A stretch of DNA of 64,000 bases from Chloroflexota bacterium. GTDB lineage: Bacteria > Chloroflexota > UBA11872 > UBA12225 > JAJDUF01. The stretch covers positions 1,949,255-2,013,254 of the forward strand of contig OZ250185.1 of the NCBI GenBank assembly GCA_965238265.1. The letters run 5' to 3'. This document shows positions 15,944 to 50,907 of the stretch, piece after piece; the stretch's first letter is position 1, and every line of letters begins with the position of its first letter. The notes under the pieces are model-generated. The model was not told the DNA's origin. It saw nothing but the letters and a program-made list of their open reading frames with translations, and searched no databases. Position numbers and translations under genes: made by a program.

Positions 15944-17131
15944 TTGACGAGCAATGATCCGCTGCGTATCGCCGTAGTCGGCTGTGGGGGGATGGCTGGC
16001 TCCCATCTTCGCGCGTACCGCGAGCTGGCGCAGAAAGCGCCGGGCCTCATCACGGTGAGCGCGACGTGCGACGTGGACGAGGCCCGCGCTCGCCGCGCCG
16101 CTGCCGAGGTTGCCGAGTTCCAGGCGCAGGCGCCGCGTGTCTATACCGACTACCGGCAGCTCCTCGACGAGCACCGACCACCAGCGGTTGACCTGATCGT
16201 GCCGCATAATGTCCACCACACCCTCGTAGTCGAGGCCTTCGACGCTGGCGCCCACGTGCTGCTGGAAAAGCCGCTCGCCGTCAGTATTGCCGCCGGCCGG
16301 CGGCTCTTGGCGGCGCACGAACGGGCGTGTGAGCGGTCGCCCCTCGTCCTGGCAGTGGCCGAACAGTACCGGCGCACACCGGAGGCCCGGGTGACTTGCT
16401 GGGCAATCCGGGATGCGGGCCTCATCGGTGAGCCGCGGATGATCTTCTCACAACGAGTAAATCTCAGCATAGGCCTGATCGTCGGGACTGCCTGGCGCCA
16501 CGACCGCCTCCTATCCGGCGGTGGTTGGGTGCTCGACGGCGAGGTACATACGTTCGACCTCTTTCACAATATGTTCGGTCGTATTGCCGAGGTCTATGCC
16601 GCGGTACGGACCTTCGAGCCGACCCGCTACGCAGACCCGCAGACACTCAGCGGCCCCACGCCCTCCGACGTTGAGGACGCCGCGATGGCCGTGTTGACCT
16701 TCGAGAGCGGGCTGTTGGCCAACTTCACCTGGACCCAGGCTGCCCCGGGAAAGGCGTTCCAGCGGCGCCGCTACTATGGCAGCGACGGCTCACTGGACCA
16801 GGATGGCTTGCACCGGCGCGATGGCACTACCTTGGGCATTGCCGAGGTGCAAGAGCAGTTCCTAGAGTTGCTCACCCCGGAGCAGAAGGAGACATTATTT
16901 CCCTACGACACCCGAGACCCGGTCCTAGTAGAAATCGTGGATTTCGTCCGCGCCGTGCGTGATGGCACCGTGCCGGAGGTAGACGGCCACGAGGCGTTAG
17001 CGGCGATGGCAGTGAGCGAGGCTCTGTACGAGTCGGCCCATGCGGGTACGCCGGTCAAGGTAGCCGATGTCCAAGCCGGCCGCGTCCGGGCAGCGCAGCG
17101 TGACATTGACGCGCACTGGGGCTTGCTGTAG
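15944..17131 (+). CDS. Gfo/Idh/MocA-family NAD(P)-dependent oxidoreductase
   Basis: An N-terminal Rossmann fold (LRIAVVGCGGMAGSHLRAY) is present, and the length and C-terminal domain are typical of the family. Confidence 0.8.
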   Translation: MTSNDPLRIAVVGCGGMAGSHLRAYRELAQKAPGLITVSATCDVDEARARRAAAEVAEFQAQAPRVYTDYRQLLDEHRPPAVDLIVPHNVHHTLVVEAFDAGAHVLLEKPLAVSIAAGRRLLAAHERACERSPLVLAVAEQYRRTPEARVTCWAIRDAGLIGEPRMIFSQRVNLSIGLIVGTAWRHDRLLSGGGWVLDGEVHTFDLFHNMFGRIAEVYAAVRTFEPTRYADPQTLSGPTPSDVEDAAMAVLTFESGLLANFTWTQAAPGKAFQRRRYYGSDGSLDQDGLHRRDGTTLGIAEVQEQFLELLTPEQKETLFPYDTRDPVLVEIVDFVRAVRDGTVPEVDGHEALAAMAVSEALYESAHAGTPVKVADVQAGRVRAAQRDIDAHWGLL

Positions 17132-17176
17132 CCCAGCATGGTAGTACCACTGATCTAGGCTCTGTTGACATTCCTC

Positions 17177-17261
17177 GGTCATTCCCGCTTGCGCGGGAAT
17201 CCAGGGCGGGCGCGATGGCTACGGCCCCAGGTGCCTGGATTCCGGCCTCCGCCGGAATGAC
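17177..17261. repeat. composite repeat made of two dRS3-like hairpins in opposite orientation (ggtcattcccgcttgcgcgggaatcc ... ggattccggcctccgccggaatgac)
   Basis: Seen directly. The architecture resembles the elements at 59228-59302 and 40476-40582. Confidence 0.8.
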
Positions 17262-17305
17262 GGGAGGGGACACCATGAATGACACTCCTACCTGGTGGTC
17301 AGGTG

Positions 17306-18463
17306 CTAACTACCCCCGGCCTCGTGGAGGAGCCGGTGGAGCTTGGCAGCGCTGCGCTCCCATGTGAACCGCGCTGCTTGTGCCGTCCCGCGCTCGATAA
17401 GCGTGGCGCGTAGCTCCGAGTCGCCGAGACAGCGAGACAGTGCATCGGCTAAGGCTGCTATGTCGGTTGGCTCCACCAACAGCCCGGCGTCGCCGACCAC
17501 TTCCGGTAGAGACGACACCCCCGAGGCCACGACGGGACAACGACAGGCCATCGCTTCGACACAGGGCAGGCCAAAGCCTTCATAGAGCGAGGGGTAGGCC
17601 AGCGCGACCGCTCCGGCGTACAGCAGACGCAGCTCGCTGTCGTCAGCGTCCTCGATCAGCCGGAACGAGTCGGTCATCTCGTGGTCTTGCACCGCCCGCT
17701 GCACCTCGGCATAGAGCCAGCCACGGCGACCGGCATGGACGAGCAAGACGTCTTCGCCGGTCTGCTCGCGTAGCAGGCGCACGGCCGCGATCAGTCGGGG
17801 CAGGTTCTTGCGCGGCTGTACCGTGCCTACCGAGAGGACGTAGGGACGGTCGAGTCTGCGCCGGCGGCGCATCGCTCCCAGAGCGGCAGGGTCGTCCACC
17901 GGCCCGAAGATCGGATCGGCGGCCGAGAGGAGGACGGCAGTCTTTTCCGCCGGTACTCCCAGGAGTGCCATGGTGTCTTGGCGCGTGTGCTCCGAGTCGG
18001 TGAGTACCAACGCGGCGGCCCGCACGGCCCGTGGCACCGCCGCTGTGAGGAAGGCGACCAAGCCGGGATCGTGCGTCTCCGGATAGTGCAGGAATGAGAG
18101 GTCGTGGATCGTGACAACCCCCCGCGCGCGTAGCAGCGGCGGGAGCACGAAGTTCGGCGAGTAAAACACCGCGCTGCCGGGGGCGCAGAGGTCAGCCCAG
18201 AGGGGTACTCGCCAGCGATGCCACAAGACGTTCAGCAGGCGCTCCGGGACGGGCAAGCGCCGCAGGGCTACCGTGCCCTCCGTCCCCGGCTCTACGTGTG
18301 GCGTCAAGGAGTCTCGCAGTGACGGGGGGACGGCCCCCGCATACAGCAAGGTGTAACTGTCGCCCGCTGCGGTGTGAATGAGCGCCTGGACCAGGGATCG
18401 GGTGTAGCGACCGACCCCGGCAGCCTGCCGCACGGCTGGGGTGTAGTCAATAGCGATCTTCAC
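17306..18463 (-). CDS. glycosyltransferase family 4 (GT-B fold, group 1)
   Basis: C-terminal GT4 motifs are present (LYAGAVALAYPSLYEGFGLPCVEAMACRCPVVAS). Start was taken at the GTG of VKIAIDYT; the track ORF extends 70 codons further into a repeat region. Confidence 0.8.
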   Translation of the reverse strand: MKIAIDYTPAVRQAAGVGRYTRSLVQALIHTAAGDSYTLLYAGAVPPSLRDSLTPHVEPGTEGTVALRRLPVPERLLNVLWHRWRVPLWADLCAPGSAVFYSPNFVLPPLLRARGVVTIHDLSFLHYPETHDPGLVAFLTAAVPRAVRAAALVLTDSEHTRQDTMALLGVPAEKTAVLLSAADPIFGPVDDPAALGAMRRRRRLDRPYVLSVGTVQPRKNLPRLIAAVRLLREQTGEDVLLVHAGRRGWLYAEVQRAVQDHEMTDSFRLIEDADDSELRLLYAGAVALAYPSLYEGFGLPCVEAMACRCPVVASGVSSLPEVVGDAGLLVEPTDIAALADALSRCLGDSELRATLIERGTAQAARFTWERSAAKLHRLLHEAGGS

Positions 18464-18718
18464 GATGCATTGTCTCGTACACGAGTCTCCGGCTCCCAGG
18501 GGCGGTGCCGGATAAGCAAGGGGCGATGTGAGCCACAGAGCACACGGAGCGCACAGAGGATAGCAGCCCCGGACAAGCGCCCGTCCCCTGTGGCTTGCCA
18601 TGGGTGGGACCGCCCCCCTATGGTCCTCCCGCTGTGCAGGGGGACGGTGCTTCCCTCCCCTGTGCGTCAGCACGGGGGAGGGCCAGGGTGGGGGCCACTA
18701 ACCACTCGCCACACGCCC

Positions 18719-19702
18719 CTACTTCGTGTGCTTGCTGATGAGGAAGACGGGCAGCCCGGTCACGATTAAGCCCCAGAAGCTAATCGAGCGATCCACCAAC
18801 GCCACGCCGAGGGCCACCTCCGGCGCGACACTGAACAGTGCCAGCACCCCTACCATGCCGGTCTCGACAGCGCCCAAGCCGCCCGGAGTCGGGACGACGA
18901 GCAGCAGCGAGGCGGCAGTCAGGACGAAGAGTACCGGCCCGATGGACAGCGGCACGTGGAGCGCATGGAGCACGAAGAACAGACGGCCGGCCTCCGCCAG
19001 CCACGCGAGGAGGGTGAGCGTGCTGACAACGGGCAGGTCCTGAAACGAATGGAAGACACCGTGCTCGAAGCGCGAATAGTAGGCTTGGATCCGCGCGCTG
19101 AAGAAGCCGATGACGCGCGGGCCACCGTACCGCAGGGCCAGCACGCCGGCGATGAGGATGAAGAGGACGACGGACGCGAGCAGCGCTAATTGCGCCAGCT
19201 CGGTGCCCACGCGGCCCCGCAACACCAGCAGCCCACTCAGCGCCAACAAGAGGACGAGCACCAGCACGTCAATGACCCGCTCCGCAAACACGGTACCCAT
19301 CGCGCGCGAGAACGACACGCGGTCGGTGCGCTTGAGGAGATAGCCTCGATATGCGTCGCCAAGCTTCAGCGGAGCGATACTGTTGACAAACCAGGAGAGG
19401 TAGATAATCTCAGTCAGCCGCGCCACGGACAAGTAGGGGTGCCCTACGTTGCCCAGCAGCCGGCGCCAGCGCAGCCCCCGCACCGGGAACGTGCAGATAT
19501 ACGAGCCAATCGCCAGCAGATAGAACCAGGGGTTGGCGTTGGTGATGCTCGCCCAGGTGGCATCGAGATTCACGTCGGCAGCGCGGATGACCACGACCAG
19601 GACTGCCAGCCCGACGACGAAGGAAAGAGCCGTGCGGACGTTCAGCAGCCGACGCGCCCAGCTAGTGGATTCGTCGGCCGGCGCTTTGGTTTCTGAGGTC
19701 AC
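18719..19702 (-). CDS. flippase-like / lysylphosphatidylglycerol-synthase-TM-domain (PF03706-like) integral membrane protein
   Basis: The polytopic membrane domain begins WARRLLNVRTALSFVVGLAVLVVVI. Start was assigned to the GTG whose codons overlap the upstream gene's stop (GTGA). The track ORF's 160-aa N-terminal extension overlaps the neighbouring gene and is low-complexity. Confidence 0.6.
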   Translation of the reverse strand: MTSETKAPADESTSWARRLLNVRTALSFVVGLAVLVVVIRAADVNLDATWASITNANPWFYLLAIGSYICTFPVRGLRWRRLLGNVGHPYLSVARLTEIIYLSWFVNSIAPLKLGDAYRGYLLKRTDRVSFSRAMGTVFAERVIDVLVLVLLLALSGLLVLRGRVGTELAQLALLASVVLFILIAGVLALRYGGPRVIGFFSARIQAYYSRFEHGVFHSFQDLPVVSTLTLLAWLAEAGRLFFVLHALHVPLSIGPVLFVLTAASLLLVVPTPGGLGAVETGMVGVLALFSVAPEVALGVALVDRSISFWGLIVTGLPVFLISKHTK

Positions 19703-21225
19703 GCCCGCGCTCCCGAACGGTGGCTGGCTGTCGTCCTGCTCCCTGGCCGCAGACGGGAGGCGGCTGGCGCTGTCGTCTGCTCCGGAGCGGACGCTGCGTT
19801 CTCCAACAGGGCCAGCAGCAGGCCGAGTAGCACACCCACACCCTGGACGAAGAGCATGTCGAAGATGCTGTGGATCGAGTAGGCCGTCAGGCCGCCCAGG
19901 ATACCCACCGCCAGCGCCCGCAAGGCGCGGTCGTGCCGGTTGCGTAGCGCGCGTCGTCCCAAGCACACGATTGCCAGCACGAGCACGAGATAGGCTCCGA
20001 GACCGAGCAGGCCCGCCTCCGCCGCGATGTTCAGATAGAGATTGTGCGCGTGGCCCAAGGGTTGCTGCCAGTTGGCGAGCGCAACCTCCGGGTAGTAAGC
20101 GTCGTAGTTCCCAACGCCGATCCCCGTCAGGTAGTTGTCCTGGAACATACGCAGGCCGGCGTGCCATTGCGAGAGCCGCTCGAGCACCGACCAATTCTCC
20201 GGGGTCACCGGGGTGCTCACCACTGTCCGCACGTTGACGGCGGACAGGGCGGCGTCCAGCGCCGGTTCCGTGAATTGGCCCGGCAGCGCCAGGCCCGCGA
20301 CGATAGCAAGCAAGAGCACGGCAGCGCCGAGGGCCAGAGTGATGCGTCGCGTGGCGCGACTGCCCAGCAGCAGGACCAGCAGCACGGCGCCGGCCAGGCC
20401 GAGCAGCCCTCCGCGCGACAGCGAAGCGAGCAGCGCGCTACCCAGCACGACTACCACTAGGCCGGTACACGAGCGGATCCACGGCAGTCGCGCTTCCAGG
20501 TCGCCGAACGCCCAGAGCGCAAAGGCGATGGGGAAGAACAGGACCAAGTAGCCGGCAAACGGGTTGGGCTGGCCGAACGTGCCGTGCGCCCGCATCAGCA
20601 CGTCGTTGACCAGGAAATGCGCCGGCCCAATGCGGCCGAGCGTCTGCACCAGCCCCACCGCTGCCTCGGCCGTGGCCGCTATCAGCAGACCGCCCACCAC
20701 CCACCACCGCCAACAGGTGACGCGCAGCAGTGCCACCGTCACTCCGTAGACCGCGAACAGCTCTACCCACTTGATGACTTCCTCCAGCGAGGACTCGATG
20801 TCCTGAGAGCGCAGGATACTCAACATAAGTACGGCGAGCAGCGCGAGACCGGGCAGGAGCAGCAGCGGGCGCGGTAAACCGCGCACCCGGCGCAGCGCGA
20901 GCACCGCAGCGGCAACGTACAGCAAGACCAGCACTTCCGTCACGCTGACTCGGAATTGCCCTAGCGTCGTTGCAACGAGCGACTGGAAGGGCACCGACCA
21001 AGCGAGTAGGAACACGCCAACCAGCGGCTGCACCAGCAGCAGCAAGAGCACAAGCACGCCAGCGAGAGCCACGGCGGACAGCAGCGGTGGGGCAATGGCA
21101 ATCGCGCTGCCGAGAGCGAGCAGCCCCACAGCGCCCCTGATGCGGGCCCACGGCGTAGACCGGGCGCCGAACGCCGGCCGGGTGCCTTTTCGGATGCCTC
21201 GATACGATGTCGCCAGTAGGCTCAC
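19699..21225 (-). CDS. O-antigen ligase / Wzy-like polysaccharide polymerase family membrane protein
   Basis: It has more than ten TM segments and a Wzy_C-like core (LASLSRGGLLGLAGAVLLVLLLG ... GIGVGNYDAYYP ... HAHNLYLNIAAEAGLLGL). Confidence 0.75.
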   Translation of the reverse strand: MSLLATSYRGIRKGTRPAFGARSTPWARIRGAVGLLALGSAIAIAPPLLSAVALAGVLVLLLLLVQPLVGVFLLAWSVPFQSLVATTLGQFRVSVTEVLVLLYVAAAVLALRRVRGLPRPLLLLPGLALLAVLMLSILRSQDIESSLEEVIKWVELFAVYGVTVALLRVTCWRWWVVGGLLIAATAEAAVGLVQTLGRIGPAHFLVNDVLMRAHGTFGQPNPFAGYLVLFFPIAFALWAFGDLEARLPWIRSCTGLVVVVLGSALLASLSRGGLLGLAGAVLLVLLLGSRATRRITLALGAAVLLLAIVAGLALPGQFTEPALDAALSAVNVRTVVSTPVTPENWSVLERLSQWHAGLRMFQDNYLTGIGVGNYDAYYPEVALANWQQPLGHAHNLYLNIAAEAGLLGLGAYLVLVLAIVCLGRRALRNRHDRALRALAVGILGGLTAYSIHSIFDMLFVQGVGVLLGLLLALLENAASAPEQTTAPAASRLRPGSRTTASHRSGARA

Positions 21226-21267
21226 GTTGCCTCGCTACCTGTAGCCCGGATTCTGCATACGATGGCC

Positions 21268-22260
21268 CTAGGGAGCCGGACGACGGGCGTACTCGGAGTC
21301 GCGCGTCGCCCGAAACCAGGCAATCGTCCCCGCCAGCCCCTCGCGCAGCGGCACCAGCGGCTCCCAGCCCAACACCGTGCGTGCCCTGGTGATGTCCGGA
21401 CAGCGCCGGCCGGGGTCGTCCCGCCGCACCGGATCGGTTTCCTGGACCGGCTGCTGCGTGATTGGGGACCGCGATCCGGCCACCTCGACCACCAGCGCCG
21501 CAAACTTGCCTATTGTCCACTCGTCCGGGTTGCCGAGGTTGAATACCTCGCCGCGCGCTGCGGCCGCGGGCGCCGCGATGACGCGCAGAATGCCGGCGGC
21601 CAAATCGGTGACGTAGCAGAAGCTCCGCGTCTGTTCGCCGGTGCCGATCACGACAAGTGGCTCACCGGCGAGGGCGCTGCAGATGAAACTTGGCACGACG
21701 CGACCATCGTAGTGGCGCGTGCGTGGCCCGTAGGTATTGAAAATCCGCACAATCCGCACATCCAGATCGTAGCGACGGCCATAGGCCATCGTCAGCGCCT
21801 CACCGTACCGCTTGCTCTCGTCATAGCAGCTACGTAGGCCGATGGGGTTCACGTGGCCCCAATAGGTCTCGCGCTGCGGATGCTCTTGGGGATCGCCATA
21901 GACCTCCGAGGTCGAGGCAAAGAGGAACCGACTGCCATGCTGCTGCGCGAACGCGAGCAGGTGCTCGGTGCCGCGCGCGTTGACCGCCATGATCTCCAGG
22001 CTCAGACGCCGGAAATCTAACGGACTGGGCGGGCTGGCCAGATGGAGAATCCAGTCCATGGGGGGCAGGTCAGCGGGCAACGCCTGGCTGACATCGGCAT
22101 TGACGAACGTAAAGCCGGGGCGGTCGGTCAGCGCGGCCACGCTCGCGCGAAAGCCGGTGAGCAGATTGTCCAGACACCAGACCTCGTGCTCGTCGGCAAG
22201 CAGCACCTCACAGACGTGGGAGCCAATCATACCGGCGCCACCGACGACGAGCACACGCAT
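21268..22260 (-). CDS. UDP-glucuronate decarboxylase (UDP-xylose synthase) / NAD-dependent epimerase-dehydratase
   Basis: MRVLVVGGAGMIGSHVCEVLL is followed by the YxxxK catalytic motif (YDESKRYGEAL), and the length is typical of UXS. Confidence 0.85.
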   Translation of the reverse strand: MRVLVVGGAGMIGSHVCEVLLADEHEVWCLDNLLTGFRASVAALTDRPGFTFVNADVSQALPADLPPMDWILHLASPPSPLDFRRLSLEIMAVNARGTEHLLAFAQQHGSRFLFASTSEVYGDPQEHPQRETYWGHVNPIGLRSCYDESKRYGEALTMAYGRRYDLDVRIVRIFNTYGPRTRHYDGRVVPSFICSALAGEPLVVIGTGEQTRSFCYVTDLAAGILRVIAAPAAAARGEVFNLGNPDEWTIGKFAALVVEVAGSRSPITQQPVQETDPVRRDDPGRRCPDITRARTVLGWEPLVPLREGLAGTIAWFRATRDSEYARRPAP

Positions 22261-22262
22261 TG

Positions 22263-25200
22263 CTAGGTACTCTCCGGCGCGTCAGGTGGTGGCACCGTCG
22301 CCTGTGTGGTGGGTGGTGTGTGTTGCATGAGCACGACCAACAAGCCCGCACTAGCCCAGCAGACGTAGGCGAGGTCCGGTAGGAAGTAGGAGTTGTCCAC
22401 TAGCCCGTGTACCACAAAGTTGGTGAGGCTGCCGGCCAGCCCCAGCGCAAGCAGCTGCGAACGGTACGCGACGCCATCCTTCCGCAGCAACAGCCACACG
22501 CTGCGGCCTCCAGCCGCGAGCAGCCAGCCGAGCGCAACGATGCCCATTATACCCCCGCGCAGCCAGTAATCGAGGACCAGGTTGTGGGGGTGCGAGACGA
22601 ATGGCTCCCGCCAGGCGACACCCTCGCGATACGCCGGATAGGCGTAGAGAAACCCGTCCGGCCCTACGCCAAAGAGCGGATGATCCAGCCCCATCCGCAG
22701 CGCAGCCTGCCAGAGCTGGAGACGCAAAGCCATCGTGCCACCAAGCGGGTCCCCAACGCTGCTCAACCGCTCCACGCGCGTCGCCAAGCCAATCCCCAAG
22801 GTGAGGACGATGACGATGGCCACGACCGAGACGATGAGTGTCCAGCGTCCGGCAGCGTCCCTGAGCCGCCGCGCCAAGTGACGCCGCCAGGTGTTGCCCC
22901 TGATCGCGAGCAGGCCGATCAACACCACTCCCACGCCGACCGCGCTGGCCAGCCACGCTCCACGCGAAAACGAAAAGAGGAGTGCCGCACCGATGATGCC
23001 GGTGCTCAGAATCGCTACTCCTAACCGCCAGCTCTGCACTATCTTAGCGCCCATCGGCTTGTGCCGCCCCGGCGTGTCTGCTCGCCCGCTGTCGGTATGG
23101 AGGAGCGCCAGCGCGACAGCGAGGGGAAGCAGCCGTCCCAGGAAGAGCGCGAGGTGGTTGGGGCTGCTAGAGAGACCGGCGAGCCGCACGACGCCTTCCG
23201 CTTCGATGAGGCGCTGGCCGGCTGCTCCGAGGGCCAGCGCTGCCGCTCCGGCAACGATACCGGCGGCTACCAGCGCCCAGGCCAGCCGGGCCGGGTCGCC
23301 GCGCTGCCGGAACAGGGTCACGATGAGTACGAGCAGCAAGGCTGGCTCCAGCACCACGACCCGTAGCTCGCGCAGCGCCACCGCCGGCACCTGCGCGCCA
23401 ACGGTGGCCACGGTCGCCGCGACGATCAGCAGCACGGCCGGCCCCCCAAACGCCCGCGGCCACCGCGGCCAGCGTTCGTGCCACACCGCGCGCGCCACGA
23501 CGGCGGCGGCCGTTGTGATCCAGAGTAGCTCCGTCAAGGTCACGCGCCCCAGCCCAAGCTGCACGGCATGGGCGTGCCAGGGCAGCGACAGGATGAGCAG
23601 ATACACCCCGGTACGCGGGCGCCACAAGACGAGCAAGCCGATAGACCCGGCGCAGGCCAGCCCGGCCTTGCCATCGGGCAGCAGGAGCATGGCCGTCGCG
23701 GTGGCCAGGGCCATTGCCAGCGGCCCTCGGTCCGTGCTCCACCACCGGCGCAACAGGCCAGCGGGCGCGTGAGCCACGAGAGCTGCGAGCGGCCCGGTCA
23801 ACGGGTGTAGGGGCACGGCATGCTGCGCCCCTACGAACGCATCGGTGTCTCCTACCATCCCCGGTTGGCCCAGGAGCGGCGCCAGCAGTGGAGCGAGGCT
23901 GCGCCGCAGCCGGCCACGCACTCGCCAGAGCAGCGCTATGAGCGCCGCGCACCACACGCCGCCCGTGAGGAGATACGGGCCGAGGGGGCGAGCGCGGCCG
24001 ATCAGGATAGCGTCCACGCCGATAGCCGGCCCCAAGGAATCAGCCGCCTGCCGGCCCGTCACTACCAGCTCTAGCTCGTGTAGACGATCCGGTAGGCCCG
24101 TAGCAATCGGAATCCTCTGCTGAGATAGAGTCTCTGGCCGATATTGATCGAGCAGCGCCCGACTGGCCGGGCCGGCCGGGAGCCGATTGGCCAACGTCGG
24201 TACCCCATCAATGGTCACTTCGGCGATGCCACGCCCCGGCCCCAGTGGCCCCAGCAGCACCACGTCCGTGCCGCGGAACGTGAGGCGGAGCGTCGTGCCG
24301 GCGATGGGGCCTTCCCAGTACCGCTGTCCGCTGGCGGCCGGGTCGAAGGTGTATTGGCCGGCGCCCTCGATCAGGATGTCCGCGTGGGACTCCTCGTGCC
24401 AGCCCAGCCCGAGAGCGGCAACGGCGGTCGCCGCTTGCAACGAGTCGTACAGGGGGCGCGGCCGCCAGTCGGTATCGAGCAGCGCAAAGAACCCCGTCGG
24501 GTCGTCGGGATGGACGCCCGGATAGCGGAGTACCCACAGCGCCATGACGCCGACGAAGGGCCACTCGTCCCGCGCTCGCGCCAGCGCGCGAACGGTCGAG
24601 CGTCTCTGCTCGGCCACGGAAAACGACCCCCACGGTGAAGGACGCCCTTGCCAGCCGGGCGGTAGCGCGTTCCAGCCGAACTCCGAGACCCAAATCGGCT
24701 TGGACCCGTCCCCCCACGCTTCCATCAAGCGCCGCGTGAGTACCAGGCGGGGAAAGTTCGTGCGTTCGGGCGCGATACGATGGTCGTCGGCATCGGTCCA
24801 GAGACCGTAGGCCATCACCGAGGCAATATCGAAGTGAGCTTTTGCCCCATGCTCGTACATGCGTTCGAGAAAGGCGAGGTCGTCGAGGCCCCGGTCGCCG
24901 CGTTCGAGTGTGGGCGCAAGGCCGGCCGCCAAGACGCGGATCGTGGGATCGGCTTCCTTTGCCCGCCGATAGGCACTGCGTAGTAGCTCGACATACGCAG
25001 CGGGATCAACCGGGCGGTCACCCCACTCATGGTTCAGATTCGGCTCGTTCCAGATTTGGATGTGGGTGATCCGGCCCCGGTAGCGCGTGACAAAATCGTA
25101 AACGAAGTCGCCGTAGTCGAGGTAGTTCAGCGGCGGGTGGGTCCCGCTACTGTCGGGAGGACGCGCCCATTCGGGGGGACGATCCAGACGAGCGATGATC

Positions 25201-25586
25201 CGTATGCCCTGGCTCCGGGCCGTGTCTACGATGTGGTCGTACTTGTCCCAGGTGGAGCGGCCGGTCGTCTCGTGCGTGTATTGCCCCTTGCGCCGTTCCA
25301 GATCAGTCCAGAGGAATTCCTGGCGTATCCAGCGGACGCCCGCCTCCTGAGCCAGTCGCAATGATCGCGTCACTCCCTTGGGCGTTTCCAGCTCCAGGCG
25401 CGTATTGACGCCCAACTGCGCCACGGCGCGGTCCGCAATCGGCGCAGCCGGCAGGCCATAGCCGACCCCATCCTCGACAATGAGATGATGCAGCAGCAGC
25501 CCACCCGCAGCGCTGGCCAGCGCCAGTAACCAGAGGACGCCGGCGCTGAAGCCGACTACCCGCATACGCCGGCGATATTGACCCAC
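22263..25586 (-). CDS. large fusion protein: signal-anchor, then a clan GH-A (GH5-like) glycoside hydrolase domain, a beta-sandwich region, and a C-terminal polytopic Wzy/O-antigen-ligase-like membrane domain
   Basis: The GH5 signature THIQIWNEPNLNHEWG lies in the N-terminal 400 aa. The C-terminal roughly 500 aa have more than ten TM helices and a Wzy_C-like segment (FSFSRGAWLASAVGVGVVLIG ... HPHNLVLDYWLRGGIMG). Confidence 0.7.
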   Translation of the reverse strand: MGQYRRRMRVVGFSAGVLWLLALASAAGGLLLHHLIVEDGVGYGLPAAPIADRAVAQLGVNTRLELETPKGVTRSLRLAQEAGVRWIRQEFLWTDLERRKGQYTHETTGRSTWDKYDHIVDTARSQGIRIIARLDRPPEWARPPDSSGTHPPLNYLDYGDFVYDFVTRYRGRITHIQIWNEPNLNHEWGDRPVDPAAYVELLRSAYRRAKEADPTIRVLAAGLAPTLERGDRGLDDLAFLERMYEHGAKAHFDIASVMAYGLWTDADDHRIAPERTNFPRLVLTRRLMEAWGDGSKPIWVSEFGWNALPPGWQGRPSPWGSFSVAEQRRSTVRALARARDEWPFVGVMALWVLRYPGVHPDDPTGFFALLDTDWRPRPLYDSLQAATAVAALGLGWHEESHADILIEGAGQYTFDPAASGQRYWEGPIAGTTLRLTFRGTDVVLLGPLGPGRGIAEVTIDGVPTLANRLPAGPASRALLDQYRPETLSQQRIPIATGLPDRLHELELVVTGRQAADSLGPAIGVDAILIGRARPLGPYLLTGGVWCAALIALLWRVRGRLRRSLAPLLAPLLGQPGMVGDTDAFVGAQHAVPLHPLTGPLAALVAHAPAGLLRRWWSTDRGPLAMALATATAMLLLPDGKAGLACAGSIGLLVLWRPRTGVYLLILSLPWHAHAVQLGLGRVTLTELLWITTAAAVVARAVWHERWPRWPRAFGGPAVLLIVAATVATVGAQVPAVALRELRVVVLEPALLLVLIVTLFRQRGDPARLAWALVAAGIVAGAAALALGAAGQRLIEAEGVVRLAGLSSSPNHLALFLGRLLPLAVALALLHTDSGRADTPGRHKPMGAKIVQSWRLGVAILSTGIIGAALLFSFSRGAWLASAVGVGVVLIGLLAIRGNTWRRHLARRLRDAAGRWTLIVSVVAIVIVLTLGIGLATRVERLSSVGDPLGGTMALRLQLWQAALRMGLDHPLFGVGPDGFLYAYPAYREGVAWREPFVSHPHNLVLDYWLRGGIMGIVALGWLLAAGGRSVWLLLRKDGVAYRSQLLALGLAGSLTNFVVHGLVDNSYFLPDLAYVCWASAGLLVVLMQHTPPTTQATVPPPDAPEST

Positions 25587-25592
25587 CAGGTC

Positions 25593-26741
25593 TCACCAGC
25601 CGCGGCGGGCAGTGGCCGCCCGCTTGACCGCGAAGTACACCTGGCGCGGTGCGAAGTCCGGCTCGACCATGCGGAAGTAGTACTCGGACTGTGCCGGAGT
25701 AATGTCTCCAACCTGCCGGAAATACCAGATCATGATGGCGCCCACCCAGGGCCACTCGCGCCGCGCGTGGAGCACCCCCTCGACCGTCCATTCCGCCTGC
25801 TGCTGCTCGGTAACTCGGCGCCAGATCAGTTGCTCCGGCGGCATGGTCGTTGGTGAAGCGTTCCAGCCATATTCATTGAACCACACCGCCTTCTCGCTAT
25901 CACCGTGGCGCACCATCACGTCACGCAGCAGGCGCACGCGCTGGAAGTTGAGCGTGTCGGCGCGCGGTGGCTCCGTCGGCGGCCGATCCATCCCGTAGGC
26001 GTTGGCCAGCATGATGTCGAAATAGGGTTGCGCGCCGGATGCGTAGAGCTGGTCCAGGTATTCCAGCTCGTTCAGATTGAACGGGCCGCGCTCGAGGTTG
26101 ATAGCGAGCGGAGCGCAGAGCACCACGGCGTTGGGGTTGGCGGCCTTGGCCCGCGTATAGGCGATACGCAGCAGGTCGGCGTAGGCGTCCGGGTCTACTC
26201 GCCCGGTCCACTCTGCGCCGAGGTTTGGCTCGTTCCAGATCTGAAAGTGCTCCACCCGGCCGCGGTAGCGGTTGACCGTAGTCGCTACGAAGTCGCCGAA
26301 ATCATCGAAGTCGTCGGGCGGATGACTGTGGCGCTCTTGATCCGAGCGTGCCCACGCCGGCGGCCGATCCAGCCGCGCAATCACCTTCAGGCCGTGCTGC
26401 TCGGCGAGGGCGACAAGCTCATCGAACTTTGCCCAGGTGACCTGGCTATACTTCGTGTCCCAATACTGACCTTTGCGGGGCTGCTCGATCTCTTCCCACG
26501 GAAACTGCTGCTTGATCCAACCGATGCCGGCGTCCCGGATCATCCGTAGGGAGAGGTCCTTCTTCCAGTCTTCGACCTCCTTGTGGAGGAAGGTGTTGAC
26601 ACCCCAGGGGTTGCCGCCGGTATAGGGAATGGCGCGCTCTACCGGCGGCTCCTCGGTGATCGTACACGCGCTGGCGAGCGTCGCGGCCGTACACAGGCCA
26701 GCGACCTGTCCGAAGCGGCGGCGGGACACTCCGACACTCAT
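25593..26741 (-). CDS. secreted or lipoprotein clan GH-A (GH5-like) glycoside hydrolase, a paralogue of the N-terminal domain of the upstream fusion gene
   Basis: A signal peptide with a lipobox-like sequence (LCTAATLASACTI) is present, the GH5 signature is VEHFQIWNEPNLGAEW, and the domain order matches 22263..25586. Confidence 0.75.
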   Translation of the reverse strand: MSVGVSRRRFGQVAGLCTAATLASACTITEEPPVERAIPYTGGNPWGVNTFLHKEVEDWKKDLSLRMIRDAGIGWIKQQFPWEEIEQPRKGQYWDTKYSQVTWAKFDELVALAEQHGLKVIARLDRPPAWARSDQERHSHPPDDFDDFGDFVATTVNRYRGRVEHFQIWNEPNLGAEWTGRVDPDAYADLLRIAYTRAKAANPNAVVLCAPLAINLERGPFNLNELEYLDQLYASGAQPYFDIMLANAYGMDRPPTEPPRADTLNFQRVRLLRDVMVRHGDSEKAVWFNEYGWNASPTTMPPEQLIWRRVTEQQQAEWTVEGVLHARREWPWVGAIMIWYFRQVGDITPAQSEYYFRMVEPDFAPRQVYFAVKRAATARRGW

Positions 26742-26750
26742 GCTGCCTGC

Positions 26751-29330
26751 TCAGGATGCCAACGGTGGGCCGTTGACGATTGCGCCCTCCGCGGGGAACG
26801 CGGGGAACGCGACATTGAGCACTTCCTCCATATGCTCCACGAAGACAATCTCCAGCGCCTCCTGCACGTCCTCAGGCACGTCGAACAGATCCTTGCGATT
26901 GCGCGCTGGCAAGACAATGGTGCGGATGCCGCCGCGATGAGCGGCCAACACTTTCTCTTTGAGGCCACCGATGGGCAAGACGCGACCGCGCAGCGTGATC
27001 TCCCCGGTCATCGCGACATCGGCCCGCACCTCCCGTCCCGTGAGGGCTGAGATCAACGCCGTGGCCATCGTGATCCCGGCCGATGGGCCATCCTTCGGGA
27101 TTCCCCCGGCCGGCAGGTGCATATGAATGTCTCGGTGCTCGGCGAAATCCTTGTCCAGCTGTAGCCAGCGCCGCCGCGAGCGCGCAAAGCTCAACGCTGC
27201 CTGCGCCGATTCGCGCATCACGTCGCCGAGTTGACCGGTCAGGATGAGCTTGCCCTTGCCATCGAGCAGGCTCACCTCCACCGGCGCGAGATCGCCACCC
27301 GCCGGGGTCCAATACACGCTTGTAGCAACGCCGACCTGCGCGCCTTTGTCGGCAAGCTCCTGCCGAAAGCGGGCCGGGCCGAGGTACGTCGCCAATTCCT
27401 GCGTGCGGACGCGGAGCGGCGCCCCGTTGGTGCTCGGTGTCCGTGCAGCCTGCTTTGCCGACGAGTCCGACGGGCTTGCACCACCTGGGCGCTCGTCGGC
27501 AACCTCGGTTGAGCCGTTCGTAGCTTCTTCTCGCTCGGCGACGTTACGCGCAATCTTGCGGCAGATCGTGGCCAATTCCCGTTCCAGGTTCCGCACCCCG
27601 GCTTCCCGTGTATATTCGCGGATCAGGCGGCGGATGACCGGCACGCCAATCCGCACCTGGTCGCGCCGGAGGCCGTGCTCCTCCAGCTGGCGCGGCACGA
27701 GAAAGCGCTTGGCGATTTGGACCTTCTCGGCCTCGATGTAGCCGGGCAGCTCGATGACCTCCATCCGGTCCTGCAATGCCGGGGGCACCGGGTCCAGAAT
27801 GTTGGCCGTGGTAATGAACATCACCTGGGACAGATCGTAGGGCACCTCCAGATAGTGATCCGAGAATGTGTGGTTCTGCTCGGGGTCGAGCACTTCGAGC
27901 AGGGCCGAGCTGGGATCGCCCCGGAAGTCCATGCCGAGCTTGTCCACTTCGTCCATCATGAAGACCGGGTTCATGGTGCCGGCCTGGCGCATCGCCTGGA
28001 TGATCCGTCCCGGCAGCGCGCCGATGTAGGTACGGCGATGCCCGCGTATCTCCGCTTCGTCGCGGATACCGCCCAGCGAAAGCCGGACGAAGGTGCGTCC
28101 CAATGCGCGCGCGATTGACTGGCCGAGACTCGTCTTGCCCACACCCGGCGCTCCCACAAAACAGATAATCGGGCTACGAGTGTCGGGAGACAGTTTGCGG
28201 ATCGCCAGATACTCCAGAATACGCTCCTTGACCCGTTTGAGACCGTAGTGCTCGGCGTTGAGGAGCCGTGCGGCGCGACGGATGTCGAGCTGATCCGTCG
28301 TGCGTTTCTGCCAGGGCACGGCCAGGAGCCAGTCCAGGTAGGTGCGGATGATGCCCGTTTCCGGGGATGCCGGTGGCATCATCTGGAGCCGCCCCAGCTC
28401 TTTTTTGGCTCGCTCGGCGACGGCCTGGGGCATCCCGGCGGCGGCGAGGCGCTCGCGCAGTTCCTCGTTTTCTCGTGCTTGGGCGTCCGTTTCGCCCAGC
28501 TCCTCCTGGATCGCCTTCAGCTGCTCACGGAGAAAGAACTCGCGCTGGCCTTCGTCAACGTCCTGGCTGCGCTCCGATTGAAAGCGAGTCTCCAGCTGTA
28601 GGAGGTCCCGTTCCTTCTCCAGCAGGCGGTGGATGGCTATAAGTCGCGCCTGTGGGTCGAAAGTCTCTAGCAGCGCTTGGCTCCGGTCGAGCGGCAAGTC
28701 GAGGGCGGCCGCGATGATATCGGCGAGCCAGCCGGGACTGTCCGTGTTCATCGCCATCACGTAGGCGTCATCGCTCAACTTGTCGCTGAGTTTGACGCAC
28801 TCCTCAAAGAGCTTGAGTACCACCTGTTGCTCGGCTGGGTCAGCCTCCGCCGTCGCTTCGTTCTGCGGCGCTTCATCTTCCTCAATGGGTTCCACCTCGG
28901 CCTCGATGAGCGGGCTGAGGCGGCGGAAGCGACGGACTCTGACGCGCCGCTCTCCCTGGACCAGGATGCTAGTACGGCCCTCCGGCAGCTTAAGCTCGCG
29001 TCCGATGATGGCCTCTGTGCCGACCTCGTACAGGCCTTGGTGTCCCGGCTCGTCTTCAGCGCCATCACGCTGAGTGAGCACCAAGATGCTGCGGTCACCG
29101 GCGAGGGCACGCTCGATAGCCCGTAGGGACCGCTGCCGGCCCACTACCAGGGGCGACACCACGCGCGGGAACAGGACTTGGTCCCGCAGCGGCAAGACCG
29201 GCAGGATGACCGTCTTGACCGGCTCCGCTTCGTCGGCCGGTGGACCGGCTGTCGGCGGCGCGTCCGGATCGGGCGCCGCTTGCTGCTGGTGCTCGGTGTC
29301 ACTGGGCTTGCTCGATGCGTTCATTACCAT
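26751..29330 (-). CDS. lon: ATP-dependent Lon protease
   Basis: The N-terminal domain ([14 protein letters not shown]), Walker A ([15 protein letters not shown]) and the protease Ser-Lys dyad region ([19 protein letters not shown] ... [11 protein letters not shown]) are all present. Start was taken at MVMNAS; the track ORF has a 74-codon upstream extension. Confidence 0.9.
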
Positions 29331-29346
29331 TCCAGTACCTGTGTAT

Positions 29347-30054
29347 CTAGGCGTATTGTGCCGTGCTAGGGCGAGCGGCGCACCGCTGCTCAACCCGCTG
29401 CAGCAGCCGTCGCGGCTCATGCTGAAGGATCTCGGGGAGCGCAGACTCCGGGAGACCGGCTCCCAGGACGACGTTCCGCGCCATAGTGGGGGTGAGATAG
29501 TCGCCGGGCCGGTGCCCATCGCTATCAACGATGAGCTTCGCGCCAAGCTCACGCGCCAGCCGCGCCACGTGCCCGTTCGTCATGCCGTGGCCGGGTTTGG
29601 CGGAAAGCTCCAGGTAGACGCCGTGCTCACGCGCGAGCTGCACGTCCTCAGCGGCAATCAGCCCGGGGTGCCCCAGGATATCCACGTCCGGGCAGACCAC
29701 TGCGGCGCGATTGGTGCCCGCCACCACCGGCTCCGTGATGGATTCCCCATGCACCACCACCACAGCCGCGCCCGCCCGCCGTGCCCGCGCTGCCGCCGGG
29801 GCGATGGCCTCCGGCGGCAGGTGGGTCAGCTCAACACCTGGCAGGCAGCGAATGTCCCAATACCGCTCTGCCTCGGCGCAGTCTGCGGCCAGCGAGGCGA
29901 GCAGTTGCTCGATACCGCCACTGCCGACGTGGTCGGTGATAGCAATGGCCCCATAGCCCTGCACGTGGACGCGGCGGATCAGCTCAATGGGCGAAAGGGC
30001 GCCGTCGCTGAGGAAGCTGTGCGTATGAAAGTCGTAGATCGGCTCATCCGTCAT
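29347..30054 (-). CDS. PHP-domain metal-dependent phosphoesterase
   Basis: [21 protein letters not shown] is followed by AIAITDHV. Confidence 0.75.
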
Positions 30055-30196
30055 TGGCGCACCTCATATAGATTCTATAGCACGGCCTGCCGTCCGGTGT
30101 CCGCCTCACCCCCGGGGCCCTCTCCATCGCCAAGCGATAGAGAGGGGGAGTCTGCCGGAGACGGGCAGGGGTGGAAGGGTAGCCCGCGCGCCGCCC

Positions 30197-30221
30197 GTCA
30201 TTCCCGCGAAAGCGGGAATCC
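30197..30221. repeat. dRS3-like palindromic repeat (cgtcattcccgcgaaagcgggaatcc)
   Basis: A perfect 10-bp inverted repeat was seen directly. Confidence 0.85.
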
Positions 30222-30304
30222 AGGCCGACCGGGGTGCCATGCAGCGCACCATCTCCGTGCTCTCTGTGTGCTCTATGGCGAAAAAACCTTCCAGGGCCGC
30301 TGAC

Positions 30305-31639
30305 CTAGGCGTGTCGGAGCTGTGGCCGGGCGGCCAGGAGGGCGAGTGTGCAGATGATAGTGAGACTGCCGCCAAGGGCCACCGCGACCGGCGCGCCCCA
30401 GGCAGCAGCGATGATCCCAGCCGGGACCGTCCCCAGCGGCATCAAGCCCATCAGGAGCAGGTAGATGCCGCTCACGCGGCCCCGCAGATTGTCCGGTGCA
30501 AGCTCCTGGACGACGGTGCCGTTGAGGGTGGTGAACGCTGATCCGGCGGCCCCGACAACAGCGAGCGCCAGCAATGCCACCGGGAGCCAAGGCGCCACAC
30601 TGAACACGATCAAGAAGACCCCATTCGCCACCGCGACCAGCACGGTGGCGAACTGCTTGCGCCGAATACCACCGCGACGTGAGGCGAGGAGCATAGACCC
30701 GGTCAAGGCGCCTATCCCCATGCTGGCGTACAGCAGTCCCAGCCCCCCCGGCCCAATGGAGTAGACATCTCGCGCAAAGGCGGGCAGCAGGGTCATGTAG
30801 GGCATCGCCAGCACAATCGGCGCAACAGCCAGCAGGAGCTGGAATAGCAGCGGCTTGGTACGGAAGCAAAACTCCAGCCCTTCCCGCAAGTTGGCGAAGA
30901 CGCCGGCGCTGGCCCGGCCAATGCGCTTGGGGCCGGGTATCCGCATCTGCAAGACATTGCCGATGGCCCAGAGGTAGGACAGGCTTTGGAAAGCAACACA
31001 CCAGCCCACACCGGCTACGCCCATGATCACACCAGCCACACTCGGCCCGAGGACGCGACTCAAGCTCTGCGTGGTCGAGAACAGGGCCAGCGCGTTGGTC
31101 AGCTTTTCCCGCCCCACGATCTGAGGAACGAGCGCCTGCCGGGCCGGGAGCTGGATCGCAATAGCGATTCCGTGGAACGTGCTCGCAATCAGGATATGCG
31201 TGACGGTAATGCGGTCACTGAAGATCAGGAAGGTAATCAGGGTGGTGATGACAAAGAGGCCTATCTGCGAGGTGAGGATGATGAGCCGCCGGTTGACTCG
31301 GTCGGCCAGCACGCCGGCAACGGGCGCCAGCACGAGCATGGGCGCTGCCCGACAGAACCCGGCCACTCCGAGGAAGAAGGGCGAGCCGGTGAGGTCGAGG
31401 ATCAGCCAGCCAATGGCCACGTGCTGCATCCAATAGCCCATCGAGGTGATACTGTTGCCCTGCCACAGGAGCCGGTAGTCACGCACGCGCAGCGCGTCAA
31501 AGGTCGGGCCGGCCCAACTCGCCAGGTTACGCCGGAGCCGCCGGAAGCCGAGCGCGCCCTCCTCGGCAGACGACTGGGACCAAGGGGGCAGCGTTGCCGG
31601 TTCTTCGACGGCGGCCGCCGGCGGTGGATCAGTCTTCAT
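30305..31639 (-). CDS. MFS transporter
   Basis: It has twelve predicted TM segments and an overall MFS-like organisation. Confidence 0.7.
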   Translation of the reverse strand: MKTDPPPAAAVEEPATLPPWSQSSAEEGALGFRRLRRNLASWAGPTFDALRVRDYRLLWQGNSITSMGYWMQHVAIGWLILDLTGSPFFLGVAGFCRAAPMLVLAPVAGVLADRVNRRLIILTSQIGLFVITTLITFLIFSDRITVTHILIASTFHGIAIAIQLPARQALVPQIVGREKLTNALALFSTTQSLSRVLGPSVAGVIMGVAGVGWCVAFQSLSYLWAIGNVLQMRIPGPKRIGRASAGVFANLREGLEFCFRTKPLLFQLLLAVAPIVLAMPYMTLLPAFARDVYSIGPGGLGLLYASMGIGALTGSMLLASRRGGIRRKQFATVLVAVANGVFLIVFSVAPWLPVALLALAVVGAAGSAFTTLNGTVVQELAPDNLRGRVSGIYLLLMGLMPLGTVPAGIIAAAWGAPVAVALGGSLTIICTLALLAARPQLRHA

Positions 31640-33896: not shown

Positions 33897-34631
33897 TCAC
33901 CGGCGCGGTAGGGCCCGCAGCGTGCGACGCATGCGTAACAAGCCCCTGATGTCGGCTATGGCGGTAGGTACGATGCTGACGCGCGAGTCCAAGTCCTCCA
34001 CCCACTCGACGGGCACCTCAGCGATGCGGTACCCCAGATGCTCGGCGAGGAGCAACAGCTCGGTGTCGAAGAACCAGCTGGTGTCCTCGATCAGCCGCAG
34101 CAACTCATCCGCGGCACGGCGCGTAAGAGCCTTGAAGCCGCACTGCGCGTCGGAGAAATGATGCCAGAACAGCACCTTAATCAGCAGATTGTACCCCTGC
34201 GACAAGACCTCTCGCCTGACAGAGCGGCGGATGCGCGAGGCCGGCATCAGGCGCGAGCCAATCGCCACGTCATGGCCTTGTCGTAGCGCATCGAGCAGGA
34301 GGCGGAAGGCCAGCAGATTCGTCGAAAGGTCCACGTCCATATAGGCCACGAGGTCGGAGTCCGTGGCCCGCCAGGCGTGCTTGAGTGCCCGGCCCCGGCC
34401 GCGTTGGGCTAGGTAGAGGTAGGCAACGTCGGCGTATTCTTGCGCCAGGGTTTGGGCTTCGGCTGCCGTAGCGTCGGTCGAGCCATTGTCGGCAATGATG
34501 ACGCGGCACTCATAGCCGGCAGCCGCCGCGACGTGCTCGTTCAGAAAGGCGCGGAGGATCAGCACCTGCCGCCGGAGCGTAGCGGCCTCGTTGAGCACCG
34601 GGATGACTACGGAGACGGTCAGCAGGTCCAT
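33897..34631 (-). CDS. glycosyltransferase family 2 (dolichyl/polyprenyl-phosphate sugar synthase-like)
   Basis: VSVVIPVLNEAATL is followed by IIADNGSTD and a DxD-like YMDVDLS segment. Confidence 0.85.
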   Translation of the reverse strand: MDLLTVSVVIPVLNEAATLRRQVLILRAFLNEHVAAAAGYECRVIIADNGSTDATAAEAQTLAQEYADVAYLYLAQRGRGRALKHAWRATDSDLVAYMDVDLSTNLLAFRLLLDALRQGHDVAIGSRLMPASRIRRSVRREVLSQGYNLLIKVLFWHHFSDAQCGFKALTRRAADELLRLIEDTSWFFDTELLLLAEHLGYRIAEVPVEWVEDLDSRVSIVPTAIADIRGLLRMRRTLRALPRR

Positions 34632-48280: not shown

Positions 48281-48289
48281 GTGCTTACT

Positions 48290-48540: not shown

Positions 48541-48558
48541 CTCGTGTGCCGGCCCTGG

Positions 48559-50874: not shown

Positions 50875-50907
50875 CACCCGCTCCCTGACTAGCCGAAGCT
50901 GCACTCT

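Follow-up and report, generated by a model that had tools for sequence, protein, structure and literature searches.

Many exopolysaccharide clusters carry a glycoside hydrolase (GH) whose role in synthesis is debated. A 2022 eLife paper on one such enzyme, PslG, calls the reason why these clusters need a hydrolase elusive (PMC9075953), and a 2026 structural model of Psl synthesis treats PslG as a failsafe (PMC13434223). A locus in a Chloroflexota bacterium (assembly GCA_965238265.1, contig OZ250185.1) places the question within a single protein: one gene is predicted to encode a PslG-like hydrolase joined to a membrane enzyme of the Wzy_C family. Is the fusion real, what are its two halves, and does the hydrolase act on the glycan that the other half handles? 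We analysed a stretch of 64 kb around the gene, called the window below. All coordinates are positions within the window, and L-numbers are labels of related loci. We are highly confident that the fusion is genuine and that its domains are identified correctly. That the tethered glycanase acts on the glycan handled by the Wzy_C half is the reading we favour, with moderate confidence.

Every feature named in the preliminary description of this DNA was found where that description placed it, each on the minus strand. The fusion gene begins with GTG, with Met8 as a possible alternative start, and its GC content at third codon positions (GC3) is 0.79, similar to that of the adjoining genes. The encoded protein has five parts: an N-terminal membrane anchor, a clan GH-A TIM barrel, a beta-sandwich, a second transmembrane (TM) helix that leads into a cytoplasmic linker, and finally the Wzy_C domain. 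The features of the fusion, with the evidence for each, are as follows (aa, amino acids; ORF, open reading frame; pLDDT, predicted local distance difference test).

22263..25586 (-): fusion gene, 1107 aa; ORF and translation, AlphaFold model, full-length homologues.
25479..25565 (-): N-terminal signal-anchor TM helix, residues ~8-36; hydropathy, model, charge.
24411..25418 (-): (beta/alpha)8 clan GH-A catalytic domain, residues ~57-392; match to PslG by sequence and fold.
23994..24404 (-): beta-sandwich resembling a carbohydrate-binding module, residues ~395-531; all-beta in the model, pLDDT ~90-96.
23760..23981 (-): second TM helix (~536-572) and low-confidence cytoplasmic linker (~573-609); hydropathy, model, Arg-rich flank.
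22323..23759 (-): Wzy_C/WaaL-like polytopic domain, residues ~610-1088; Pfam, profile, fold.
22530..22997 (-): Pfam Wzy_C core, residues 864-1019; Pfam.

The full-length AlphaFold model, built on an alignment of homologues, has a pLDDT of 86.2 and a predicted TM-score (pTM) of 0.78. Its elements are a TM helix at residues 2-36, a (beta/alpha)8 barrel at 58-390, a beta-sandwich at 395-531, a second TM helix at 536-572, a disordered segment at 580-609 and a bundle of at least 12 helices at 610-1088.

The hydrolase half had been described as a signal-anchored GH5-type domain bearing the motif IQIWNEPN. The anchor, the motif (residues 176-183) and the clan GH-A assignment were borne out, but the GH5 type gives way to a PslG-like one. 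In the barrel strands and helices alternate with pLDDT >90, and all of the top 50 Foldseek matches in the PDB are GH-A-type barrels. The best solved relative, by sequence and by fold, of both this domain and a free-standing copy encoded next to it is PslG of Pseudomonas aeruginosa (4zn2, 5bx9). As a single sequence the GH half finds PslG as its best PDB match (expect value, E, 2.3e-6). A profile of 43 full-length homologues matches PslG at E 7.5e-23, with GH39 beta-xylosidases next (E 1e-11 to 1e-7). In the Foldseek results, too, PslG heads the list (5bx9, E 7.8e-18; TM-score, normalised to PslG length, 0.66) and GH39 enzymes come after it, although identity in the structural alignment with PslG is only ~19%. 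The predicted acid/base, E181 in WNEPN, and nucleophile, E302 in SEFGW, align by phmmer with positions 139 and 250 of the PslG chain; given an offset of 26 residues in the PslG construct, they correspond residue for residue to PslG E165 and E276, which Wu et al. 2019 changed to obtain their active-site mutant (PMC6813494). Among the full-length homologues E181 is kept in 41 of 43 and E302 in 36 of 43, and we therefore suggest that there is selection for catalysis in most lineages.

Pfam places the domain less clearly. The fused GH scores below the Cellulase/GH5 cut-off of 23.5 bits, both within the whole protein (15.9 bits) and as the domain alone (18.9 bits), and PslG is the best match by sequence, profile and fold; GH5 identity was rejected on these grounds. 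The GH region alone passes no Pfam GH cut-off (Cellulase 18.9, GH42 15.9, GH10 13.6, GH39 13.1 bits); for Glyco_hydro_39 (PF01229) the score has an E of 0.042 and the cut-off is 26 bits. We class the domain as PslG-like, a relative of CAZy family GH39 that lies below the Pfam GH39 cut-off, with a predicted glycanase activity. The beta-sandwich is also present in PslG and other GH39 structures, and the Foldseek alignments cover ~480-550 columns. Scanned alone, the sandwich of the window copy matches no Pfam family; the sandwiches of homologues give weak matches to CE2_N.

The identity of the membrane half could be settled at the level of family and fold. The match to Pfam Wzy_C (PF04932) scores 78 bits (cut-off 31.7; E 8.3e-22) and takes in positions 5-148 of a profile of 149. 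In a single-sequence phmmer search of the PDB the membrane half found no meaningful match, but the family profile matches the O-antigen ligase WaaL of Cupriavidus metallidurans (7tpg) at E 6e-14. A model of residues 594-1107 alone (pLDDT 87.3, pTM 0.86) has a single significant PDB fold match, WaaL 7tpg_B (E 1.1e-7; TM-score 0.50 query-normalised and 0.61 target-normalised), and the next fold match is the SEDS protein FtsW. These matches rule out a C-terminal region unrelated to Wzy and O-antigen ligases, and they support the preliminary description of about 500 C-terminal residues with more than ten TM helices and Wzy_C-like motifs.

Across the homologue alignment R801, S808, R955, W959, H1060 and D1064 of the membrane half are invariant, and R875, R940, H999, H1001 and D1006 come close to it. 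The profile alignment places R875, R955 and H999/H1001 on WaaL chain positions 191, 265 and 311/313, which we take to be the functional sites of the 2022 WaaL structure paper. In WaaL-type enzymes and PglS conserved Arg residues are proposed to hold the pyrophosphate and a His is proposed to be the catalytic base (PMC12800693). The membrane half thus shares with WaaL (7tpg/7tpj) both a fold and aligned Arg and His residues of the outer loops; unlike WaaL, the fusion has an N-terminal extension of 600 residues bearing a second enzyme. The wider Wzy_C family includes Wzy polymerases, the O-oligosaccharyltransferases PglL and PglS, and TacL. We assign the membrane half to the Wzy_C family with a WaaL/GT-C(B) fold, as predicted from sequence and model, and note that neither the Pfam nor the NCBIfam models distinguish a ligase from a polymerase. 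NCBIfam gave the Wzy_C proteins only generic sub-threshold matches (IctB family, 55.5 against 366 bits; RfaL, 15.7 against 277 bits).

On which side of the membrane would the hydrolase lie? Hydropathy and the model agree on one TM helix at the N-terminus (hydropathy peak at residues 14-32), one at ~536-572 and at least 12 over 610-1088. The cytoplasmic flanks are Arg-rich: RRRMR precedes the first helix, and WRVRGRLRR follows the second. Averaged over the alignment, Lys plus Arg number 4.5 after the second helix, as against 1.6 on each flank of the ectodomain. The linker, whose pLDDT falls below 50 at residues 580-597, would bring the chain back to the cytoplasmic side. Because the positive-inside rule holds at both flanking helices, the barrel and the beta-sandwich are predicted to be extracytoplasmic, on the side to which the outer loops of the Wzy_C domain also face, in agreement with the location that the preliminary description had foreseen for the GH domain.

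Two genes joined by a frameshift or by an assembly join would also produce an ORF of this kind. The observation that favours such an artefact comes from L081, a near-identical contig in ENA (ERZ25071043, contig_13; 99.9%), in which the GH region is fragmented in the gene calls. The breaks are three single-G insertions, at window positions 26083, 25098 and 24800 (L081 972, 1958 and 2257). All of them lie within the two GH domains and none at the GH/Wzy junction, and an 820-aa product of L081 still links the end of the GH domain to the beta-sandwich and Wzy_C. Because the window frame is common to all homologues, the extra G residues are most simply errors of the L081 assembly; that they mark pseudogenes of that strain is less likely. 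Nothing unusual was seen around window position ~24300, where an assembly join had been suspected, and composition is even along the fusion gene. An exact-sequence look-up of the window fusion protein in public assemblies returned no record.

Searches for homologues argue against an artefact. A search of 5.8 billion proteins gave 127 matches, nearly all of 900-1170 aa and carrying PF04932; nine of these are 79-83% identical to the window protein over the full length, several of them on complete chromosomes of 4.2-4.4 Mb from metagenome-assembled genomes (MAGs). HMMER was also run exhaustively against 1.84 billion cluster representatives (50% identity); of the best 150, 127 were at least 900 aa long, and most match the whole fusion profile in a single stretch. 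Among 80 loci from GTDB species genomes an uninterrupted fused ORF of ~850-1240 codons was found in 28, again including complete MAG chromosomes. The window frame thus recurs in 28 loci and in over 120 cluster representatives, and we give virtually no weight to an artefact. The same join of a GH-A and a Wzy_C domain in one gene recurs in many independent assemblies.

The fusion had been presented as a departure from the usual arrangement, in which polymerase or ligase and glycanase are separate genes. This is correct in so far as known Wzx/Wzy clusters keep the genes apart, but the architecture is not rare: it forms a large family in the Chloroflexota. All fused copies with a taxon label belong to this phylum, with labels that include Anaerolineae, Chloroflexia, Thermomicrobiales, Ca. 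Chlorohelix and Ca. Chloroploca. Unfused homologues with the GH/sandwich/TM layout also occur at L008 and L036, on contigs binned as Sphingomonadaceae and Solirubrobacteraceae, which could reflect either mis-binning or real spread beyond the phylum. Members of the family are named in databases only as "O-antigen ligase family protein" or "PslG", and a literature search, which did not cover all journals, found no paper on a GH-Wzy_C fusion or on a Chloroflexota module containing one. The architecture is large but undescribed; the kinds of component, PslG-like GH-A and Wzy_C/WaaL, are already known.

The GH domain occurs in three forms: alone (~350-420 aa), followed by the beta-sandwich and a single TM helix at the C-terminus (~500-600 aa), and fully fused. 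In MAGs of Thermomicrobiales the GH/sandwich/TM part and the Wzy_C part are separate neighbouring genes. At L054 (137-3480) the 583-aa GH/sandwich/TM gene overlaps the start of the 531-aa Wzy_C gene by 4 nucleotides (nt). The split pairs of L050 (9812-13693) and L064 (9740-14245) enclose an intervening gene, of 253 aa with a weak CE2_N match and of 463 aa with no Pfam match, respectively. The occurrence of the two halves both fused and as split neighbours argues for a joint function. A neighbour-joining tree of the GH domains, which is rough (BLOSUM distances, no support values), mostly grouped the fused domains apart from the free copies; it placed the GH domains of L054 and L075 with the fused copies, and those of L050, L064, L047 and L018 with the clade of free paralogues.

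PslG offers the nearest guide to what the fusion might do. It shares the layout of the first half of the fusion, with an N-terminal anchor, a (beta/alpha)8 barrel and a beta-sandwich (anchoring as described in PMC6813494), and it too belongs to a glycan biosynthesis cluster with a Wzy_C-type polymerase, PslJ, which makes Psl (PMC13434223). Normal Psl synthesis needs both the hydrolytic activity of PslG and its association with the inner membrane, and PslG is regarded as a component of the machinery (PMC6813494). The systems differ in that PslG is a separate protein of 442 aa, whereas the Chloroflexota fusion carries this layout and the Wzy_C enzyme on one covalent chain, and in that the Chloroflexota host is reported to be a monoderm. 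The Psl system has an export channel of the PslD/PslE type, and none was found in the window. Psl consists of mannose, glucose and rhamnose, whereas the Chloroflexota glycan is probably xylose-containing, because a UDP-xylose synthase gene adjoins the fusion.

From these comparisons we propose the following mechanism, in which substrate, action in cis and the division of labour between the fusion and a second Wzy_C protein of the locus are inferred. The gene encodes a single membrane protein that combines two enzyme halves, each predicted to face outward from the cytoplasmic membrane. Residues 1-535, with the PslG layout and an intact catalytic Glu pair, would form a retaining GH-A (GH39-like) endoglycanase. 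Residues 610-1088 would form a Wzy_C transferase that joins a glycan carried on undecaprenyl diphosphate either to a repeat unit, as a polymerase, or to an acceptor, as a ligase. The tethered glycanase would act on the same chain where it is synthesised, perhaps releasing it, restricting its length or removing mis-made polymer, and the fixed 1:1 tether would replace the loose membrane association that PslG requires in the Psl pathway. Gene fusion is classic evidence that two activities work together, and on this basis the halves are expected to do so. The polymerise-and-trim or chain-length-control arrangement suggested in the preliminary description is plausible and agrees with what has been learnt about PslG.

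The neighbours of the fusion gene suggest a setting for this activity. They are listed in order of transcription, the fusion lying between the second and third (SDR, short-chain dehydrogenase/reductase; Tat, twin-arginine translocation; GT, glycosyltransferase).

26751..29552 (-): Lon protease; Lon motifs in the translation.
25593..26741 (-): PslG-like GH-A paralogue, 382 aa, predicted Tat-exported lipoprotein; Pfam, PslG match, signal.
21268..22260 (-): UDP-glucuronate decarboxylase (UDP-xylose synthase, UXS), an SDR enzyme; match to human UXS1.
19699..21225 (-): second, unfused Wzy_C membrane protein, 508 aa; Pfam Wzy_C E 1.3e-21.
18719..19702 (-): MprF-type flippase-like membrane protein (LPG_synthase_TM), 327 aa; PF03706 E 1.5e-50, TIGR00374 E 2.6e-38.
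17306..18673 (-): GT4 glycosyltransferase; Glycos_transf_1 E 3.4e-32, Glyco_transf_4.

Because the genes are tightly spaced, they probably form one transcription unit; a scan of 16900..30400 for promoters and terminators found no more sites than in shuffled controls. Lon, 9 nt upstream of the free paralogue and also upstream in L001, L002 and L005, is probably outside the glycan module and serves only as context.

The free paralogue is, as had been described, a lipoprotein of clan GH-A without the membrane part, but it does not follow the fusion: in the direction of transcription it lies 6 nt upstream. It is 43% identical to the fused GH domain over 337 aa (E 8e-79), and it passes the Pfam Cellulase cut-off (29.6 bits against 23.5). 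Its best PDB relatives are PslG (E 2.5e-9) and other GH39 enzymes, and its catalytic motifs are NEPN and NEYGW. A twin-Arg motif and an A-S-A-C lipobox, whose two Arg and whose Cys, respectively, are conserved in the orthologues that were compared, support its prediction as a Tat-exported lipoprotein. In the proposed mechanism it would act further out, on chains already off the membrane.

Downstream, the match of the UDP-xylose synthase to human UXS1 (4gll/2b69) spans the full length at E 1.9e-86, and its gene begins 2 nt after the fusion. A UXS gene directly follows the Wzy_C gene in L001, L015, L018, L027, L030, L035, L047, L050, L054 and L059. UDP-xylose synthase and GT4 are thus both present as the preliminary description had them. 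The gene that it had taken for a standard Wzy-like gene does encode a Wzy_C protein, but the cluster around it is not a standard Wzx/Wzy cluster; the two Wzy_C proteins of the window align over the catalytic-loop region only. The flippase-like protein is likewise present but is of the MprF type (PF03706), not Wzx; its GTG start and the stop of the preceding Wzy_C gene share 4 nt, and the gene call in L081 agrees. The true start of the GT4 gene is probably near residue 71 of the listed ORF (~18463), and L081 has a called gene of 385 aa. PDB matches of the GT4 protein are generic (sucrose-phosphate synthase, MshA, PimA) and yielded no sub-type.

We read the row of six genes from the paralogue to GT4 as a putative module with which Chloroflexota make a surface glycan that contains xylose. 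The downstream set is found again in several classes (L001, L002, L005, L027, L035, L047, L050, L059, L064), and in the 21 loci whose downstream sequence reaches 6 kb or more UXS was found in 6, the second Wzy_C gene in 7, the flippase-like gene in 8 and GT4 in 8. A universal six-gene module was accordingly rejected, since the set is seen in only about a third to 40% of loci with enough flank.

Several observations weigh against the view that the tethered glycanase acts on the glycan handled by its own Wzy_C half. The downstream module accompanies the fusion in only ~6-8 of those 21 loci, and in the clade of L003 the pair of paralogue and fusion stands alone among housekeeping genes: on the complete MAG chromosome of L003 (1650-17467) the neighbours are PolA, an M50 protease, an NYN-domain protein, MnmE and a radical SAM enzyme, with no adjacent glycan gene. 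When 53 predicted proteins of the window were scanned with Pfam, no Wzx/MOP flippase, priming phosphoglycosyl transferase, Wzz/Wzc or Wza came to light. The locus therefore departs from a canonical Wzx/Wzy locus, although the missing genes could lie elsewhere in the genome; with no Wzx, priming transferase or chain-length regulator in the window, the donor glycan and its lipid carrier are assumed. In the 2026 Psl model, moreover, the polymerase PslJ is shielded from PslG (PMC13434223), the reverse of a tether between the two. In 8 of 28 fused homologues, an Anaerolineae-type group (L014, L016, L022, L024, L028, L060, L067, L069), N, H or Q takes the place of the nucleophile Glu; DEPN and the W..GW motif persist. 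Cutting therefore cannot be the universal role of the tethered domain, and its conserved role may be glycan binding or positioning.

Taken further, this last point leads to a reading in which the tethered GH-like domain holds or guides the chain, as a lectin or a ruler, with catalysis secondary and the cutting left to the free paralogue. The nucleophile was lost in only 1 of 18 free copies and in none of 26 TM-anchored unfused copies, and the acid/base Glu and the remainder of the motif are conserved; moreover, an active paralogue, free or anchored, adjoins the fusion in 10 of 32 loci. These facts must be set against the intact Glu pair of the window protein and its close relatives, and against the conservation of E181 and E302 among the full-length homologues given above. 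We consider binding rather improbable as the principal role.

The preferred reading, action on the chain at its site of synthesis, must also be compared with a variant in which the GH-A domain cuts the nascent chain and transfers it to an acceptor in the wall or on another glycan, making the fusion a polymerise-and-attach machine. GH-A and GH39 enzymes act by a retaining mechanism, and retaining enzymes are capable of transglycosylation; such an activity would suit the tether at the synthesis site and the presence of both Glu residues in the window protein. PslG, the closest characterised relative, is however a hydrolase, an endo-beta-glucanase (cited in PMC13434223). Homologues without the nucleophile would be incapable of standard hydrolysis and of transglycosylation alike, and LCP-type attachment enzymes have been reported in Chloroflexi (PMC7831098), so that there is no gap in wall attachment to be filled. 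We give this variant little credence.

A catabolic role, with the GH domain digesting external polysaccharide as food and the membrane half serving merely as an anchor, is very improbable. Clan GH-A does contain many catabolic enzymes, and GH39 xylosidases are among the PDB matches. But the supposed anchor keeps the invariant catalytic-type residues of Wzy_C enzymes; the neighbouring genes are biosynthetic, with no sugar transporter or catabolic gene in the module, and PslG, the best relative, is itself tied to biosynthesis.

Which of the two Wzy_C proteins would polymerise, and which might ligate? One division of labour would make the fused half a ligase of the WaaL/TacL type and the unfused Wzy_C protein the polymerase, with GT4 making a glycolipid anchor that the MprF-type protein flips. 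The outcome would be a membrane-anchored lipoglycan, trimmed or edited by the GH domain, in a phylum that is reported to be monoderm. The presence of two very different Wzy_C proteins in one cluster is consistent with such a division, as is an MprF-type lipid-flippase-like domain in the place of Wzx. The single GT4 belongs to a broad kind that includes lipid glycosyltransferases such as PimA, but its matches are generic. At L011 (13549-15981; Ca. Chloroploca mongolica) the fusion is followed by two Glyco_transf_21/GT2-type genes instead of the UXS, Wzy_C, flippase-like and GT4 set, and GT21 is a family of lipid glycosyltransferases. Although the only solved structural relative of the membrane half is the ligase WaaL, the family models, as noted, give only generic sub-threshold matches and do not tell ligases from polymerases. 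Chloroflexota are reported to lack lipid A and lipopolysaccharide (LPS), so the usual acceptor of WaaL is excluded for the fusion.

A parallel may be offered by TacL of Streptococcus pneumoniae, a Wzy_C protein of a monoderm that is proposed to act as a teichoic acid ligase in type IV lipoteichoic acid assembly, transferring the polymer from its lipid carrier to a glycolipid anchor (PMC5727136). The TacL pathway is a possible analogy for the set of Wzy_C, flippase-like protein and GT4, but TacL has no hydrolase domain, and its flippase and glycan chemistry differ from those of the window module. Many fusion loci, moreover, are without the flippase-like and GT4 genes, and the literature search turned up no such lipoglycan. 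Ligation to a glycolipid anchor is a serious alternative that we nevertheless regard as unlikely. A bolder version would make the fusion the core of a Chloroflexota-specific route to surface glycans that has no chain-length regulator or export channel: the WaaL-like domain, the MprF-type flippase and GT4 would make a glycolipid-anchored xylose lipoglycan, and the PslG-type domain would set its length or cut and transfer it. This version is distinctly doubtful. If it is true, the lipoglycan would be a monoderm equivalent of LPS or of type IV lipoteichoic acid, and the fusion would provide direct natural evidence that PslG-like biosynthetic hydrolases are physical subunits of the Wzy machinery, not only failsafe scavengers.

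Whatever the fate of the individual readings, known Wzx/Wzy clusters provide the wider comparison. In the promonan cluster of Sphingomonas the Wzy protein PrmJ is accompanied by the separate hydrolases PrmN (GH10) and PrmQ (GH16) (PMC11340318). The Psl and promonan clusters, like the window, bring together a Wzy_C-type enzyme, one or more hydrolases, glycosyltransferases and a sugar-nucleotide enzyme. They differ in that their hydrolases are separate and that Wzx, a priming transferase, Wzz/Wzc and Wza are present, whereas in the window the hydrolase is fused and those four were not found in 64 kb. The Chloroflexota join a PslG-type enzyme to one of the Wzy/WaaL type, in some lineages as adjacent separate genes, and the fusion offers a one-protein system for testing how the two cooperate. 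It also represents an abundant protein family that has no name of its own, in a phylum whose envelope glycans are poorly known, and the adjoining UDP-xylose synthase is a chemical handle for finding the product.

The only other genes of glycan type in the window are a GT2 glycosyltransferase (33897..34631 (-), 244 aa) and a DegT/DnrJ/EryC1 aminotransferase (40634..41911 (+), 425 aa), both separated from the module by unrelated genes. Positions 12001-14064 have a GC content of 0.558, against ~0.62-0.70 elsewhere, and contain an SNF2/Helicase_C ORF (12091..14064 (+), 657 aa) that fails the GC3 filter by which most other long ORFs of the window were selected; this segment may be foreign DNA. For two ORFs, 52103..53755 (550 aa) and 53771..56143 (790 aa), both (-), Pfam gave no match at E <= 1e-4; just upstream of them are genes for a von Willebrand factor A (VWA) CoxE-like protein (56717..58138) and an AAA/MoxR-like ATPase (58140..59165), also (-). 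A complete 2-oxoacid dehydrogenase operon (E1 alpha, E1 beta, E2, E3) occupies 46858-52149 (-) and is of the housekeeping kind.

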